Source: a virus
Lineage: Duplodnaviria > Caudoviricetes
Reading direction: 5' to 3' (one strand)
DNA length: 64,000 nt
IMG/VR virus record: IMGVR_UViG_3300032303_001800
Span: 1-64,000 of that record
This document shows, in pieces, positions 2,979-63,152 of this stretch. The notes beneath the pieces are model-generated. The model saw only the letters and a list, made by a program, of their open reading frames with translations, was not told the origin of the DNA and searched no databases. The translations under genes were made by a program, and so were the position numbers. Every line of letters begins with the position of its first letter. The stretch's first letter is position 1.

Positions 2979-3268
2979 TGTTATTCCTATCTATGTGTTG
3001 TAAATCCTTACCCCAGAACCCTACCAGACCGAAATGAAATCTGTCAAATCGCGCTTGCGCGATACAAAAGTTCATCAGAAAGTTCCCACGAAAACTTCGG
3101 AACTCCGTAGCACACCTGTTTAACTTTGTCAATCATCGCGTATGCGCGATGACGCTATGCGCGATGCTGGGGGGAGAGGTAGCGGGAAACCCACTCACCA
3201 TCCCTTTCGGGGATGATGAGTGGGCGGGCAGAAAGGTGATGCCACTTATTTCCCTGACCTTTTCCCCT

Positions 3269-5931: not shown

Positions 5932-6357
5932 TTACCACCAACTATCGTAATAGACTTCGTAATCACCGGACATCGCCTTGCGAGCCTCGGCAATAAACTT
6001 GAGGTCATCTTCCCTATCTTCCGGTTGGCTCTCACCGAAGAAAAAGCCTTCAGTAGAGGGTAGTGCCTCGCCCAGCACCGCGCTCTCTAGTTCCTTGAGG
6101 TCATCCCAAGTAAGTCGGATAGGCTGACAGTTAAAGCCCTGCTCCGCATGGTAGCCCTGCGCCGATGCCTTCTGATAGAATAAATCTTCCATCCAGCCCT
6201 GAAGGTTAGGGTGCTTACGCCAATAAGAGATTTGGACATAACTCTCTGTCGTAATCGTGTCGTTCTCACCCACTTGTTCGATGCTCTCACGAACATAGGA
6301 GAAATCGGTGTTTGCCTTGTTAGGGCGTACTGCGTATGCGTATTGGTCAAGACCCAT
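5932..6357 (-). CDS. Conserved phage hypothetical protein (MGLDQY...YWRKH type)
   Basis: MGLDQYAY N-terminus, YWRKHPNLQGWM, GFFFG and YYDSWW end resemble a recurrent phage family; start refined. Confidence 0.75.
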   Translation of the reverse strand: MGLDQYAYAVRPNKANTDFSYVRESIEQVGENDTITTESYVQISYWRKHPNLQGWMEDLFYQKASAQGYHAEQGFNCQPIRLTWDDLKELESAVLGEALPSTEGFFFGESQPEDREDDLKFIAEARKAMSGDYEVYYDSWW

Positions 6358-7897: not shown

Positions 7898-8118
7898 CTC
7901 TACTGCCTTTCTTGTCGTATCCCTTACGACAACAATCACTCTACCACACATCGAACCGGAAATGTGGAACATCGCGCGTGCGCGATACAAATGCTCATCA
8001 GAAACTTTCCAGAAATCTTCGAGAAACGCAAGCGTCGCGCATGCGCGATGAAGAAAAACCTGCGCGATGTAAAGGGGAGTTGGCAAGGCGAACACTTGTT
8101 CGCCCCGCCGGTGAATCA

Positions 8119-9021
8119 CTACTCCTCTTCGCCCCACTTCTTGCTTTCGATACCTAGCACTAGGTCGCACGCTTTCTGCGCTCTGCTGGCACTCTTGACC
8201 AAGATTTTCGGGTCATTCTTGAGTACCTTTAGCCACCCTGCGATGTACGCGGTGCTGTTTTCGATAGTGCTAGGAGCGATGCCGGTTTCCGCGCATAGGA
8301 AGGTCGCTGTGAACTCCGCGACTAACTCCTCTTCGCTGTATGTCGCATCGCCAAAGTAGTGCGCTTCGACTACACCTTCGCGTGCTAGTCGGCTCTTGTG
8401 TCCGGTGCTGTGCGCTGTCTCATGGAATAGCGTTGAGTAAAACGCTTCATCGCTTGTGAAACTATCCTGCTTAGGCATCGTCACCGCATCGCTACTAGGT
8501 GAGTAGTAGGCACGCTCTCCGGCAAAGGTAAGGCTAGGCGCTCCGGTGCGGGCGTAGTAGGCATCCACGATGCTCTGCGCTCCTTCGATGATGGCAACAT
8601 CTCCGCGTACCTCTCCGCGCTCCGTTGTCGGCATCTCCTTCTCTACCCACTCCGCTTGCTCCGCGTTAAATACGCTGAAGTAACGCATTACGGCACTCTT
8701 CTTGAGTTTGCCATCCTTGTCGGTAGTCTCTAGTGGTTTCCACAACACTACCGGCGTACTCTTCTCACCCTTCTTGACCTTGCCACCCATCGCTTCTATC
8801 TGCTTGTAAGTTCCCCACCACTTGCTTGTGTATCCACCGGCTATGGTCGCAAACATTAGGAGCATCTTGTTAGTACCGTTGTATGCCTTCTTGCTACTAA
8901 GGCTAGTTGGATACACTCCCGATGTAGTCCACTCCTTACGCCACGCGGGGATGCCACCCTTCTCTAATGCTTCGATGATGCCTTGTGCCACAATCTCGTA
9001 GGGACTCTTTCTCTTTTCCAT
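8119..9021 (-). CDS. ardC: ArdC-like antirestriction ssDNA-binding protein with zincin-like domain
   Basis: N-terminal PAWRKEW...YNGTN...TYKQ...GGKVKKGEK; C-terminal HETAHSTGH, YSEEELVAE, YIAGWL. Confidence 0.92.
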   Translation of the reverse strand: MEKRKSPYEIVAQGIIEALEKGGIPAWRKEWTTSGVYPTSLSSKKAYNGTNKMLLMFATIAGGYTSKWWGTYKQIEAMGGKVKKGEKSTPVVLWKPLETTDKDGKLKKSAVMRYFSVFNAEQAEWVEKEMPTTERGEVRGDVAIIEGAQSIVDAYYARTGAPSLTFAGERAYYSPSSDAVTMPKQDSFTSDEAFYSTLFHETAHSTGHKSRLAREGVVEAHYFGDATYSEEELVAEFTATFLCAETGIAPSTIENSTAYIAGWLKVLKNDPKILVKSASRAQKACDLVLGIESKKWGEEE

Positions 9022-9351: not shown

Positions 9352-9562
9352 TACTACCTTTCATGTTGGCAACCTACCAACTACAACCACATTAGCACAT
9401 CGAACTAACCAAAGAAACGTCGCGCATGCGCGATACAAAAGGTCATCAGAAAGTTTAGGGAAATCTTCCTGAGACACCCGTAACGTGCCACGTGCGCGAT
9501 GAAAATATCGCGCGTTAGACGCATGCGCGATACCCATGCGCGATGACGGCGGGGAATACCCC

Positions 9563-10163: not shown

Positions 10164-10454
10164 CTAACTCAACTCTTCCAACTCGCTCATCACCGCACGA
10201 ATGTCGGTGGTGATGCTGTCAAGGTCGCTGATGTTGTCGATGTCGCTCTGTGCGCTGTCAAGGTAATCCTTGGCGTGCTCGATGTTTCGCACCGCATCGG
10301 CCAACTCGCTCTGCGCCCCGCTGACATCATCCTCAAGGGATGAGAGGGAGTTCATAATCCCGCCCAATGTTTCACGTGGAACAATCACCACATCCTCACC
10401 CAACAATGCGGGCAACAACTCCAACAACTTCTGTACCGCTTCATCCTTAGTCAT
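10164..10454 (-). CDS. Acidic coiled-coil protein containing an internal parS site
   Basis: Heptad-rich 96 aa; the VPRET peptide is encoded by the parS palindrome. Confidence 0.7.
   Translation of the reverse strand: MTKDEAVQKLLELLPALLGEDVVIVPRETLGGIMNSLSSLEDDVSGAQSELADAVRNIEHAKDYLDSAQSDIDNISDLDSITTDIRAVMSELEELS
10368..10383. promoter_or_regulatory. parS: parS site (ParB binding)
   Basis: TGTTTCACGTGGAACA; matches bacterial parS consensus TGTTNCACGTGAAACA when read on the minus strand. Confidence 0.8.
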
Positions 10455-11195: not shown

Positions 11196-11215
11196 TTATC
11201 CACAGGTTATCCACA
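11196..11215 (+). promoter_or_regulatory. Two tandem perfect DnaA boxes
   Basis: TTATCCACA at 11196-11204 and 11207-11215. Confidence 0.8.
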
Positions 11216-11241
11216 GGGCGGGGTTTCCCCCACCCTGCGGA

Positions 11242-11257
11242 TGTTCCACGTGAAACA
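11242..11257. promoter_or_regulatory. parS: parS site (ParB binding)
   Basis: TGTTCCACGTGAAACA, matches consensus; intergenic, 26 bp from the DnaA boxes. Confidence 0.85.
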
Positions 11258-13918: not shown

Positions 13919-14068
13919 CTTCGCCCCTTTCATTTGGCTGACTCCATTGTAGGCAGATTTGCCGAAAAAAAGCAAGTTTCGCGCATGCGCGATGGGGGAA
14001 AAGTCTGTTACACTTTGCGCGATGAGGGGGCTGGGTTTGGAGCGGGGGTTTCCCCCCGCCCCGCGCCT

Positions 14069-15811: not shown

Positions 15812-16030
15812 CTAAAACCATCGGGAGATGCCCGCCCAAAGGCGTAGGGCATCCTCTCGGGTGCGGTAGAGGTGTCCGTCATCGCTCAACGGCTTACCAT
15901 CGGCGCCAAACAGGGTAAGCGTGAAGAAAGAGCCGTGGTCAAACTCATGGCTCGGGTTGTAGTGGCGGTTGATGGTCGCCGTGACCTCACCCGCGGGCGA
16001 AGTGAGAGTGTCAGTCAGTTCGTAAATCAT
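15812..16030 (-). CDS. Hypothetical protein
   Basis: 72 aa; GAAAGGGA RBS; strong promoter upstream. Confidence 0.7.
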   Translation of the reverse strand: MIYELTDTLTSPAGEVTATINRHYNPSHEFDHGSFFTLTLFGADGKPLSDDGHLYRTREDALRLWAGISRWF

Positions 16031-16075
16031 TGTAAATCCCTTTCGTACTCACCGGCATTGTTGCCGATGGTACAG

Positions 16076-16104
16076 AGTTTAGTGAGCGTTTTTTAGAAAG
16101 TCAA
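16076..16104 (-). promoter_or_regulatory. Sigma-A type promoter abutting CGCG palindrome
   Basis: TTGACT-17-TAAACT; the palindrome at 16107-16122 ends 2 bp upstream of -35. Confidence 0.78.
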
Positions 16105-16203
16105 GCATCGCGCGTGCGCGATAGGGGAAAACCCCGATAAACTTTGCGCGATGACGTAGGGTTTGGTTTGGGGGCGAACACTTGTTCGCCCCCGCCCCTT
16201 GCC

Positions 16204-16482
16204 TTAGTCATCCTCTCGCGGGTTGGTGTGGGTGAGTAGGAGTTCGACTAGTGCGGTGTAGGCATCCTCGCTAGGGGAGCACCACGCTAGGCGGGTGTGG
16301 GCTAGGGCGTTCGCCCGCACCGCTTCCGCTTCCGTGGCGTACCAAAAGGCGAACAGGGAGAAATAGCGTTCGCCGTCAGATGCGCTGACCTGAACGCCGA
16401 AATAGGGGTGGGTGTCCTCGGCGTACCAACCCCAATGACGGGGTTCGTTGGTCAAGGTAACTTGGGCGGAAGTGTAAATCAT
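16204..16482 (-). CDS. Hypothetical protein
   Basis: Start refined to MIYTSA; TTGCTT-17-TAGGCT promoter upstream. Confidence 0.68.
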   Translation of the reverse strand: MIYTSAQVTLTNEPRHWGWYAEDTHPYFGVQVSASDGERYFSLFAFWYATEAEAVRANALAHTRLAWCSPSEDAYTALVELLLTHTNPREDD

Positions 16483-16828
16483 TGTAAAACCCTTTCGGTT
16501 GGTGTCGGTATTGTTACCGATGGTACTGAGCCTAGTGAGCAAAAAAGTAAAAAGCAACTATTTTTTTGCGCGATACATTTGTTCGTCAGAATGTTTTCAG
16601 AAATCTCAGCGGGGGCGTTGGGTTACGTGCGCGATGGATTTTGTGCGCGATACATTTGTTTGTCAGAAAGTTTTCCAGAAACATCGCGCAGGGGTTTCCG
16701 TATGCGTGCGCGATACATTTTCTCCTCAGAAAGTTTCCAGAAATCCTCGGAGCGCGCAGGGGTTACGTGCGCGATGCCGATGGCGAACAAGTGTTCGCCG
16801 CAAAAAAGCGAACATTTGTTCGCTTTAG

Positions 16829-16873
16829 TTATCCACAGACTTATCCACAGGCTGTGGTTTATTCTGTGGGTTA
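16829..16873. promoter_or_regulatory. DnaA-box cluster
   Basis: Perfect TTATCCACA at 16829-16837 and 16841-16849; two inverted 2-mismatch boxes at 16853-16861 and 16865-16873. Confidence 0.78.
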
Positions 16874-17055
16874 TTGGATGGCGAACGCTTGTTCGTTTTC
16901 TCCTATTCCTGACTAGTTAAGTCATGTTTCGGGCGGGCGTGCGGGGGTATGCGTTTTTATGCGTGGAGATGTGTTTTTAATCATCGGGCTAGATGTGCGC
17001 GATGTGGCGCGTAGGGCGCGGGATGTGATAACATCCCGCGCCCATCGTGGCGCGT

Positions 17056-17083
17056 GCGTGATGCGTGATGCGTGATGCGTGAT
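17056..17083 (+). repeat. Tandem (GCGTGAT)x4
   Basis: Four perfect 7-bp units. Confidence 0.95.
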
Positions 17084-17088
17084 GCGTT

Positions 17089-17123
17089 GCGATAGGCGCG
17101 GGCGTGATGCCCGCGCCTATCGC
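17089..17123 (-). terminator. Perfect 15-bp-stem hairpin after the 17134..18018 gene
   Basis: GCGATAGGCGCGGGC-GTGAT-GCCCGCGCCTATCGC; no clear U-tract. Confidence 0.55.
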
Positions 17124-17133
17124 GTGCGATGCG

Positions 17134-18018
17134 TTACAACGCTACCGCGTGACCGCGCTTTACCACACGCGATGTCCAATCTTCGACATCTTCGATGTCA
17201 TCCCATAGACCGGCGATGTCTGAGCGATGCGCAATACGCTGTCGAACATCGTTCGACATCGTAACGCTCTCATCGTGGCGGGCAAGGATGGACTCAGCGA
17301 GTGACCGCGCACCGGTAGCGATACCGCGAGACTCCAGATTATCCAGATGCCCTACGGGGTCGCGCCACAATACAGGGCAACCACAAACGCGCACCGCGAG
17401 AAACTTTCGTTCCTCGTTGATGTGCGCGACTGTCTCGCTTTCATCGCGACTCCATGCCGTCATTGGAGCCAACAACATCATCGCGTTGTTATCGTGACCG
17501 CCTGACGCGTAGAGCAGACTGTTTAGCAACAGTCCATCGGCGTTAATAGTGATGATGTTCCATGCGCTCTGCGAATGTTGCGCGTTGCGAATGATAAGAA
17601 CGCCACCATTCGTTAGGAACGATGTCATCTCTGCCAACGATGCGAAAGTGCCACTAGTCGCGATGACATCATCCATGAGCGCGCTTAGCACCTTGTCGCG
17701 CTTAGTGCGTGTTGCCATCTTCACGCGAACATCGTTCGCGGGCGTGATGACATTGACACCCTCGCGCTTTTTGTCTTTCGTGACATTGTCAGAAAGTTGC
17801 GCGATGACTGATGCGATGAACGCGTTAGCGCGATTGTAAGTAGTCATCGCTCCATGAGTGATAACACCACCATCACTAGGCGCGATGTTCGTTCGACAAA
17901 TGTGTCGCTCTGCTATCTCATCGGCGATGTGTGATGCGATGCCGTTAGCGCGTGCCATGTCTCCAATCAGTTTGCGCGTACGGTCGCGGTCTTTCGTGTT
18001 GTTGTTGATGCGTGTCAT
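17134..18018 (-). CDS. Hypothetical protein
   Basis: 294 aa from MTRINNN after GAAAGGT RBS; no motif recognised. Confidence 0.72.
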   Translation of the reverse strand: MTRINNNTKDRDRTRKLIGDMARANGIASHIADEIAERHICRTNIAPSDGGVITHGAMTTYNRANAFIASVIAQLSDNVTKDKKREGVNVITPANDVRVKMATRTKRDKVLSALMDDVIATSGTFASLAEMTSFLTNGGVLIIRNAQHSQSAWNIITINADGLLLNSLLYASGGHDNNAMMLLAPMTAWSRDESETVAHINEERKFLAVRVCGCPVLWRDPVGHLDNLESRGIATGARSLAESILARHDESVTMSNDVRQRIAHRSDIAGLWDDIEDVEDWTSRVVKRGHAVAL

Positions 18019-18208
18019 GTTGTTACCTTTCGTTGAGTGGCGAACGCGGGCGCGCTCTTTAACCACACTCAAACAATACACCAACCATTACACGCAAGCA
18101 GCCATTGGGACCAATGCAGTGCCCACACGTCTGAATTTTACACCTCCTATATAAGAACATATGTTCAAACCGTAGACAGGCTACAAAAAGTATGCTATGC
18201 TATCACAC

Positions 18209-20909: not shown

Positions 20910-21158
20910 CTGGGTTCCTCCAGTTAGATTTAGTTGCAGGTCAAGTGTACAGCATCACATGCAACCTGTCAAGAGTTACAGCAGAATTTTCTGTAGATGA
21001 TATGTAGTATTAGTTAATATATATTATTATATATAGGGTGGTAACTGGCTGCCACCCCAAAGTTTCAAGAGAAACGCCCATTTACCCTGGTCAAATACCT
21101 GGCAACTGGCTGCCACCCATACCCTTGCTTATTGTACCACCTCTGGTACAATTAATTT

Positions 21159-62131: not shown

Positions 62132-63152
62132 CTTCAACAACCTCTTCGACCTCAACAACTCCGATGGTTTCCATCACGCGGTTATAAATTTCTTGATACA
62201 ACGCTGGGTCTTCCTTTAGACGCTTTTTGGTTTTTTCTTTACCCTGACCAATGTTTTCGCCTTCATAGTTGAAGTACGCACCGGCACGGCGCAAAATCCC
62301 CAAGTCAGTAGCGCAATCAATAAGCACACCATACCTAGAAACGCCAACACCGTACTCAAGGTCAAACTCTGCCTGACGGAAAGGTGGTGCTACCTTGTTT
62401 TTGGCAACCTTGACGCGGGTGCGGTTAGCAGTTGATTCCTCGCCGGTTTTAATGGTCTGAATACGACGAATGTCAAGACGGACTGACGAGTAGTAAGGCA
62501 GGGCTTTGCCACCGGGGGTGTACTCGCTAGGCCCATACATCACACCAATCTTTTCACGCAATTGATTGATGAAAATAACCAACGTGTTGTTAATGGACGC
62601 GGCGTGGGTCATCTTGCGAAGTGCCTGACCCATAATTCGAGGCATGAGCCCGACGTGATGGTCGCCCATCTCGCCTTCAATTTCGGCACGGGGGACCAAT
62701 GCGGCTACGGAGTCAATGACAACAAGGGCCACCTCGCCGGACTCGATAACCCGAATGGCGGTCTCTAAACCCTGCTCCGCGTTGGCGGGCTGGGAGAGAA
62801 TAAGAGACTGAACATCAATGCCAATAGCCTGTGCGTACACAGGGTCAAAAGTGTGTTCAGCGTCAATGTAGACACAGGTCAAACCGAGCGATTGTGCAGA
62901 TGCAATAGCGTGCTGAGCAACGGTTGACTTGCCCGACGAAGTGGGGCCGAAGAACTCGACAATACGGCCTCGGGGCAAGCCACCAACGCCCAAAGCCATG
63001 TCCAACGGCAAAATGCCGGTAGAAATAGTTTCTACGGGGACAATATCTGAGTTGTCAAGGCGCATGATTGCACCTGCACCAAACTGCTGATTGATGGAGT
63101 CAATGACGGATGCGAGGCTTCCACCGCGCGGGGCTGAGGTTTTCTTAGCCAT
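62118..63152 (-). CDS. recA: RecA recombinase
   Basis: [68 protein letters not shown]. Confidence 0.97.

Follow-up and report, generated by a model that had tools for sequence, protein, structure and literature searches.

Interleaved LexA-type and DnaA boxes ahead of the early arm of an uncultured phage: a possible host-factor docking module with a counterpart in T5

We examined a noncoding spacer (positions 16483 to 17133) in an uncultured Caudoviricetes phage, IMG/VR record IMGVR_UViG_3300032303_001800, in which boxes of the kinds bound by LexA (SOS boxes) and by DnaA stand side by side at the head of a leftward arm of small early genes. The stretch of DNA analyzed, hereafter the window, comprises the first 64 kb of this 78,430-bp genome (50% G+C). 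The boxes are real and nonrandom, and the locus has a counterpart in phage T5. The DnaA-box clusters of the T5 injection-stop region have reportedly been a puzzle since 1987. The locus is probably not the phage's replication origin. We tentatively favor reading it as a module at which host LexA and DnaA dock and which gates the early arm, a reading that we hold as a serious possibility and not as an established one.

Three LexA-type operators and a head-to-head array of DnaA boxes occupy only 112 bp of the spacer. All three SOS boxes match the palindrome CGAAC-N4-GTTCG perfectly: CGAACAAGTGTTCG at 16784-16797, CGAACATTTGTTCG at 16809-16822, and CGAACGCTTGTTCG at 16882-16895. This palindrome, the Cheo-type box, is the LexA operator of Gram-positive bacteria and is bound by actinobacterial LexA. 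Between the second and third SOS boxes lie two perfect plus-strand DnaA boxes, TTATCCACA, at 16829 and 16841 (16829-16849, 3 bp apart), facing two degenerate boxes on the minus strand (16853-16873), TGTGGTTTA at 16853 and TGTGGGTTA at 16865, each two mismatches from TGTGGATAA. The two pairs form an inverted repeat of 18 nt with 83% identity, and the gap between SOS and DnaA boxes is 6 bp. Three tandem repeat units precede the box cluster on the plus strand (16562-16619, 16639-16696, and 16702-16759). An earlier note on this DNA had listed the three units, the three SOS boxes, and both pairs of DnaA boxes, all of which we recovered in a gene-free stretch that runs to 651 bp and not to the ~570 bp given there. 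When compared with dinucleotide-preserving shuffles of the window, CGAAC-N4-GTTCG occurs 8 times where 0.08 copies are expected, and TTATCCACA occurs 5 times where 0.37 are expected.

Among the relatives of this phage in IMG/VR (~80 contigs with TerL 61 to 85% identical), three contigs from different metagenomes, L043, L075, and L042 (TerL 74 to 76% identical, 42 to 43% G+C), show this layout at the syntenic position: three units, three perfect SOS boxes, and four perfect DnaA boxes, of which one is forward and three are inverted. The possibility, allowed for in the earlier note, that the boxes are not conserved is thereby refuted. The three perfect inverted DnaA boxes stand where this phage has its degenerate pair, the third SOS box (CGAACGCTTGTTCG) is identical in L043 and L075, and the units of these two contigs read TTGCGCGATA...CACAGAAAAACTTCCTAAAAAC. 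In the L043 group, the SOS boxes directly follow the stop codon of the leftward gene. Between the locus and its L043-type counterparts, the flanking genes have no detectable homology save for a distant pair of 261 and 264 amino acids (aa), the next rightward gene. The 316-aa open reading frame (ORF) that borders the spacer here is replaced in L043 by a 213-aa gene without similarity to it, and the ORF is not kept in relatives that retain the locus. Elsewhere in the family, the number of SOS boxes varies greatly: L041 and L024 have head-to-head DnaA boxes and lack SOS boxes, while L014 has SOS boxes together with the core LexA-type box GAACATATGTTC and a promoter ahead of a homologue of the 261-aa gene. 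The DnaA-box cluster of L041, a 78.9-kb relative, is adjoined by decamers of the CGCGCCCACG type repeated in a long tandem array (L041:890-1080). No near relatives are visible among deposited phages, and a megablast search of 16000-18200 against phage records returned no match.

Similar composites extend well beyond this family. A scan of IMG/VR for DnaA boxes within 30 bp of an SOS box found 89 stretches, and 35 loci in 18 DNA-distinct groups hold at least four perfect boxes within 250 bp, often interleaved. A strict pattern, defined as an SOS box followed after 1 to 20 bp by two DnaA boxes 2 to 3 bp apart, was found in 16 IMG/VR stretches but only once when 596 Gb of prokaryotic genomes were scanned. 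This pattern is specific to viruses. The sole prokaryotic match (L171:6578-6624) belongs to the thermophilic actinobacterium Gandjariella thermophila (NZ_BJFL01000002.1) and could be a prophage or plasmid remnant. Across these loci, gaps between DnaA boxes peak at 2 to 3 bp in the same orientation, and 11 of the 35 nearest SOS-DnaA gaps measure 2 to 6 bp (19 lineages). Since LexA and DnaA boxes so often abut, interplay between the two proteins is plausible, including an occlusion by LexA such as the earlier note proposed; the origin to which that note had attached it is unsupported. Other words enriched in the clusters include the actinobacterial DnaA-box variants TTGTCCACA and TTTTCCACA. The genes beside composite loci are diverse (TauD-like, WhiB, amidoligase, and terminase), and among the neighbors of the 19 composite loci only the TauD-like and WhiB families recur, each at 2 to 3 loci, with no replication gene in common. 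Of the 32 contigs with a composite locus, 15 end within 1 kb of it (L042, L043, L075, L082, L084, L088, L129, L130, and L139 among them). We considered whether these are physical genome ends, but ends in the L043 group fall within dispersed repeats and other contigs of the same groups read through; they are most likely assembly breaks, and we do not use them as evidence.

The closest known counterpart of the locus is in T5. In T5-like phages, eight ordered DnaA boxes lie in the untranslated injection-stop region and have been argued not to be origins (bioRxiv 10.1101/866236). As cited by Davison (10.1101/866236), Heusterspreute et al. (1987) resolved the first-step-transfer repeat regions and injection stop of T5 into the arrangements IRC-spacer-IRD and IRD'-spacer-IRC' and a palindrome D. 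In the T5 record, we found a LexA box, TACTGTATAAATATACAGTA, at 9409 (9409-9428), which stands 8 bp from DnaA doublets spaced by 3 bp inside the annotated injection stop signal (iss), and an inverted twin of this LexA-DnaA module at ~6.2 kb (6211-6230). Both phages therefore have, next to a block of small early genes, an untranslated region of several hundred base pairs that is rich in palindromes and repeats and that holds DnaA boxes in doublets (3-bp spacing) and inverted sets with a host-type LexA operator nearby (6 bp here, 8 bp in T5). They differ in that each T5 module has one LexA box, of the Escherichia coli type (CTGT-N8-ACAG), whereas the present locus has three of the Cheo type. The earlier note knew of no such architecture in a phage. 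This is true in part only, as the T5 iss pairs its DnaA doublets (10.1101/866236) with a LexA box. The searchable literature, in which subscription journals are poorly covered, yielded no paper linking LexA to the T5 "injection stop signal" and none joining Cheo boxes with DnaA in phages.

The type of LexA site therefore appears to follow the host while the DnaA box stays constant. In our view, the best argument that host proteins read these boxes is this switch of LexA site, from the E. coli type in the coliphage to the Cheo type in actinophages. Host LexA and DnaA are likely the readers, considering also that the host appears to be actinobacterial and that actinobacterial DnaA-box variants are enriched in the clusters. 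DnaA arrays combined with LexA operators thus occur in many uncultured actinophages with the LexA type matched to the local host, a match which argues for real use of host LexA and DnaA and for selection on the pairing; such use would bear on how phages sense the state of the host at the start of infection. More loosely, these loci may form a common class of cis-element in phages of very different hosts, a LexA-gated DnaA nucleoprotein switch that lies in untranslated DNA near the early genes of T5-like phages of enterobacteria and of many actinophage lineages and is set by the damage state of the host, although we consider such a class less likely than not. Such a switch could control an early step of infection, be it DNA entry, licensing of an origin by host DnaA, or release of the early arm.

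The likeness to T5 also invites a more literal interpretation, namely, that the locus is a T5-type injection stop at which host DnaA and LexA seize the incoming DNA so that the early arm is expressed before the rest enters. The close match in cis-architecture to the annotated iss favors this, as does an early arm built of self-contained cassettes and carrying an ArdC-like antirestriction gene. However, T5 has A1/A2 transfer proteins, and no homologues of A1, A2, or dmp were found here; in a tblastn search of the T5 pre-early proteins against the genome, no match was better than an E value of 0.59. A terminal repeat of 10 kb houses the T5 modules, whereas this genome has no long terminal repeat, only 123 identical bp at its ends (1-123 and 78,308-78,430), which could represent either a short terminal repeat or overlap left by assembly. 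Furthermore, the part assigned to DnaA in the T5 stop is hypothetical. We therefore regard an injection stop of this kind as quite unlikely.

If the locus is a docking and gating module, LexA dimers and DnaA would occupy the array in an undamaged host as a nucleoprotein barrier or gate, insulating the early arm from leftward read-through. Since the LexA boxes abut the DnaA boxes, LexA occupancy would be expected to limit DnaA oligomerization at the array, and cleavage of LexA, aided by host RecA or by the RecA encoded on the phage, would change the state of the gate. The repeat units may be sites for a phage-specified early regulator, since their sequence changes between phage lineages. A role at junctions between transcription units is suggested by SOS boxes that follow stop codons, by the hairpin and T-run at 16809, and by a DnaA-box pair at 11.2 kb in a like slot. 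All eight perfect SOS boxes of the window are confined to 8 to 17 kb. Five boxes outside the locus sit after stop codons, four of them at a distance of 15 to 17 bp; these four are an identical palindrome, GGCGAACACTTGTTCGCC, at 8089, 10134, 15054, and 16175, with a C-rich tract after it on the minus strand, in the position of a cassette terminator. The second SOS box of the locus forms the stem of a hairpin (16802-16826, minus strand; -11.1 kcal/mol, z -2.8) that is followed by a minus-strand T-run (the complement of A6 at 16802-16807) and looks like a terminator. The phage also places a LexA-type box over a promoter-like site, which we count in favor of a docking and gating module: the core box GAACATATGTTC at 18155-18166 overlaps the -10 element of a rightward promoter-like site of the 261-aa gene, and the arrangement is kept in L014.

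Host LexA is used as a direct regulator by several phages, including GIL01, CTXphi, and coliphage 186 (at its tum promoter). Like these phages, the present one carries host LexA-type operators on its DNA. Unlike them (they are temperate, with single or paired operators over a promoter), it has 8 to 10 boxes, mostly at cassette junctions. A host example of joint control is the E. coli uvrB promoter, which is coregulated by LexA and DnaA through sites that overlap mapped promoters (PMC6015884). Several LexA and DnaA sites share one region there as here, and both proteins act as transcription regulators at uvrB; in contrast to uvrB, no overlapped promoter was found in the box cluster itself.

Several observations weigh against the docking and gating module. 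A promoter-like site overlapping 16784-16895 was sought and not found, so classical repression is not demonstrated. The sequence shows the sites, their conservation, and their place at a junction, whereas occupancy of the boxes, their effect as a barrier, and any response to cleavage of LexA are inferred, and the host, too, is deduced from phage genes. The symmetric DnaA array and the parS sites in its neighborhood look more like mimicry of a chromosome origin than like a transcription element. A 76-aa winged-helix (wHTH) protein encoded by the phage, and not host LexA, could read the SOS boxes. Finally, two perfect G+C-rich hairpins at 17014-17043 and 17089-17123 (minus strand; -28.3 and -34.9 kcal/mol, z -6.7 and -9.2) are probable terminators, lacking U-tracts, of the upstream 316-aa gene (17134-18084, minus strand, transcribed toward the locus) and may by themselves suffice against read-through, so that a further barrier would be almost superfluous. 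The box cluster lies downstream of these hairpins and upstream of the units, beyond which stands the probable promoter of the first cassette.

A further alternative involves no host factors. The palindromes could be plain RNA hairpins, that is, terminators without U-tracts as are common in actinobacteria, and the DnaA-like words could be sites of a phage protein. SOS palindromes in terminator slots are predicted to fold at -5 to -12 kcal/mol (-12 kcal/mol for the SOS box at 16784), and the DnaA inverted repeat folds at -17 kcal/mol. For a terminator, however, any stem would do, yet the stems are always CGAAC/GTTCG in ~19 lineages. Some boxes are also packed at intervals of 1 to 4 bp or alternate with DnaA boxes, an arrangement in which hairpins would be pointless, and unrelated phages repeatedly carry the exact universal DnaA consensus as well as its actinobacterial variants. 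We accordingly give hairpins without host factors very little credence.

We asked how well the locus fits the reading of the earlier note, a DnaA-dependent origin that LexA keeps closed until DNA is damaged. In the form considered here, it would be a secondary origin dependent on host DnaA, which would assemble on the head-to-head boxes and open DNA close by; LexA on the abutting boxes would block this until the SOS response, and the units would serve as iterons. A cluster of consensus DnaA boxes, as in oriC-type origins, is present (two perfect and two degenerate boxes at 16829-16873), and the 2- to 3-bp spacing of the tandem boxes is that of arrays on which DnaA binds cooperatively. The repeated units next to DnaA boxes resemble iteron plasmids and P1 oriR; as in P1 oriR, F, pSC101, and oriC, direct repeats adjoin a DnaA-box cluster, and parS occurs in the neighborhood, as near chromosomal origins, in two lineages. 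No DNA polymerase was found among the ORFs scanned, which cover part of the genome, so the host replisome is probably used. In L043, an A-rich tract adjoins the boxes. When compared by eye with the published definition of the DnaA-trio (PMC10201434), this tract fits loosely, and no clear run was found in the present phage.

Other features depart from P1 oriR, F, pSC101, and oriC, origins of which LexA boxes are not part. No AT-rich unwinding element lies beside the DnaA boxes: the lowest 30-bp window within 250 bp of the locus has 20% G+C and falls at 16538, ~290 bp from the boxes, in a promoter region. The repeats are dispersed over 15 kb, and no cognate rep-like or initiator gene adjoins the locus, the flanking ORFs matching no family in Pfam, PHROG, or the protein atlas. 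GC-skew, proposed in the earlier note as a check, reaches a local minimum at 13,945 and is lowest overall at 62,373, so neither minimum falls at 16.8 kb, although skew is weak evidence in phages. In T5, replication origins were mapped near the genome center, far from the DnaA boxes (10.1101/866236). Of all 30-bp windows in the genome, those richest in A+T are at 20997-21010 and 65711-65727. Each stands next to copies of another repeat, GGTGGCAGCCAGT, which forms iterons at 20.99 to 21.12 kb (window 20990-21120) and 65.67 to 65.74 kb (genome 65,668-65,740). The latter lie inside a 324-aa gene, a putative initiator, immediately upstream of a gene for a DnaB-like helicase, which to judge from sequence is the classic arrangement in which a phage origin lies within the initiator gene. 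The GGTGGCAGCCAGT sites at 65.7 and 21.0 kb are thus the best candidates for the phage's own origins. Given these sites, the missing AT-rich element, and the dispersed units, we do not uphold the DnaA-dependent origin of the earlier note, and even as a secondary origin the locus seems unlikely, with nothing specific in favor of this. More generally, the case warns against calling a DnaA-box cluster in a phage an origin.

Sites for a third host protein prompt another explanation. Consensus parS (the ParB site) occurs in the window at 10368-10383 and 11242-11257. The second copy belongs to a smaller module (11196-11257, plus strand) that consists of a tandem TTATCCACA pair (11196/11207, 2-bp spacing), a hairpin, and parS TGTTCCACGTGAAACA at 11242; its DnaA pair occupies the same kind of junction slot as do the SOS boxes after stop codons. 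In an unrelated lineage, L130/L132, a perfect parS abuts a LexA box (L130:10635-10650). Such sites might act as decoys, with replicating phage DNA draining LexA, DnaA, and ParB and thereby inducing the SOS response and disturbing host replication and segregation. With 8 to 10 LexA boxes, ~6 DnaA boxes, and 2 parS, sites for three proteins of host chromosome maintenance are concentrated in one arm, and all are of consensus strength. Titration by so few sites per genome is harder to envisage, however, and a decoy needs neither conserved position, nor tight interleaving, nor a fixed 2- to 3-bp spacing. The great variation of SOS-box number among relatives also speaks against it, and we judge a decoy function to be decidedly improbable.

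The repeat units, which the earlier note took for iterons, belong to a family of repeats that is dispersed and associated with promoters. Each unit is ~60 bp long and comprises TGCGCGATAC, ~10 nt, and TCAGAAAGTTTCCAGAAATC; copies 2 and 3 are 78% and 66% identical to copy 1, at spacings of 77 and 63 bp. The core of the units, TGCGCGAT, has 68 copies, all of them on the plus strand and between 2572 and 17798, a region in which they stand at the junctions between ~25 small cassettes of leftward genes. The early arm is a series of self-contained promoter-gene-terminator cassettes. Full unit-like copies are found elsewhere at 3056, 7979, 9427, 11065, 14674, and 15604, and a unit-like sequence (TTGCGCGCTGATACATTTTCTCATCAGAAAAACTTCACGAA) also lies within the first 60 bp of the genome. 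At the locus, TGCGCGAT half-sites occur at 16567, 16628, 16644, and 16707, and the last one ahead of the box cluster is at 16768-16775 (plus strand). TGCGCGAT is often part of a palindrome, ATCGCGCR/YGCGCGAT, right upstream of a -35-like TTGACT or TTGCTT, with an extra half-site 19 to 31 bp away. The counterpart words of relatives differ: CGCGCGATA in L043 and ACGCGCACGC in L024 and L041. Cluster A mycobacteriophages carry stoperators, which are numerous short asymmetric intergenic sites in one orientation relative to transcription. Like stoperators, TGCGCGAT is an intergenic actinophage repeat with dozens of short asymmetric copies in one orientation; unlike them, it stands upstream of promoters, often as a palindrome plus half-site, and is limited to the early arm.

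The gene that these units precede at the locus is a 92-aa ORF (16204-16482, minus strand), the rightmost and hence first small gene of the leftward early arm. It starts with an ATG at 16482 just after GAAAGGG, and its likely promoter lies at 16529-16557 on the minus strand (-35 TTGCTT at 16557-16552, a 17-nt spacer, and -10 TAGGCT at 16534-16529). This promoter was read from the sequence by eye and was not listed by a consensus scan; a TTGACT, TTGCTT, or TTGATT hexamer likewise follows the TGCGCGAT motif in other cassettes. The 92-aa ORF has no match in Pfam or PHROG, and the 316-aa ORF on the other side of the spacer has none in Pfam, PHROG, phage tblastn, or protein-atlas searches. An Rfam scan of the spacer returned subthreshold noise only and no RNA family. 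Between the two G+C-rich hairpins, Tandem Repeats Finder identified 4.7 copies of TGCGTGA (17055-17087).

Two gene products, WhiB and an Rpf-like transglycosylase, suggest that the host of the phage is an actinobacterium. Its genes for recombination and single-stranded DNA include RecA, ERF, a YqaJ-type exonuclease, and SSB, and further genes encode an SNF2 helicase, the DnaB-like helicase, a pyrimidine-dimer glycosylase, and a DNA methylase. Among the ORFs scanned, no integrase or repressor was found. The gene for the 76-aa wHTH protein overlaps the bacterial-type recA (genome 61,901-63,152). We considered whether this protein is a LexA DNA-binding domain and rejected the assignment, as its match to Pfam LexA_DNA_bind is below threshold (E = 0.068) and no LexA was matched among solved structures. 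The ArdC-like antirestriction protein of the early arm (window 8119-9021) carries a zincin peptidase domain.

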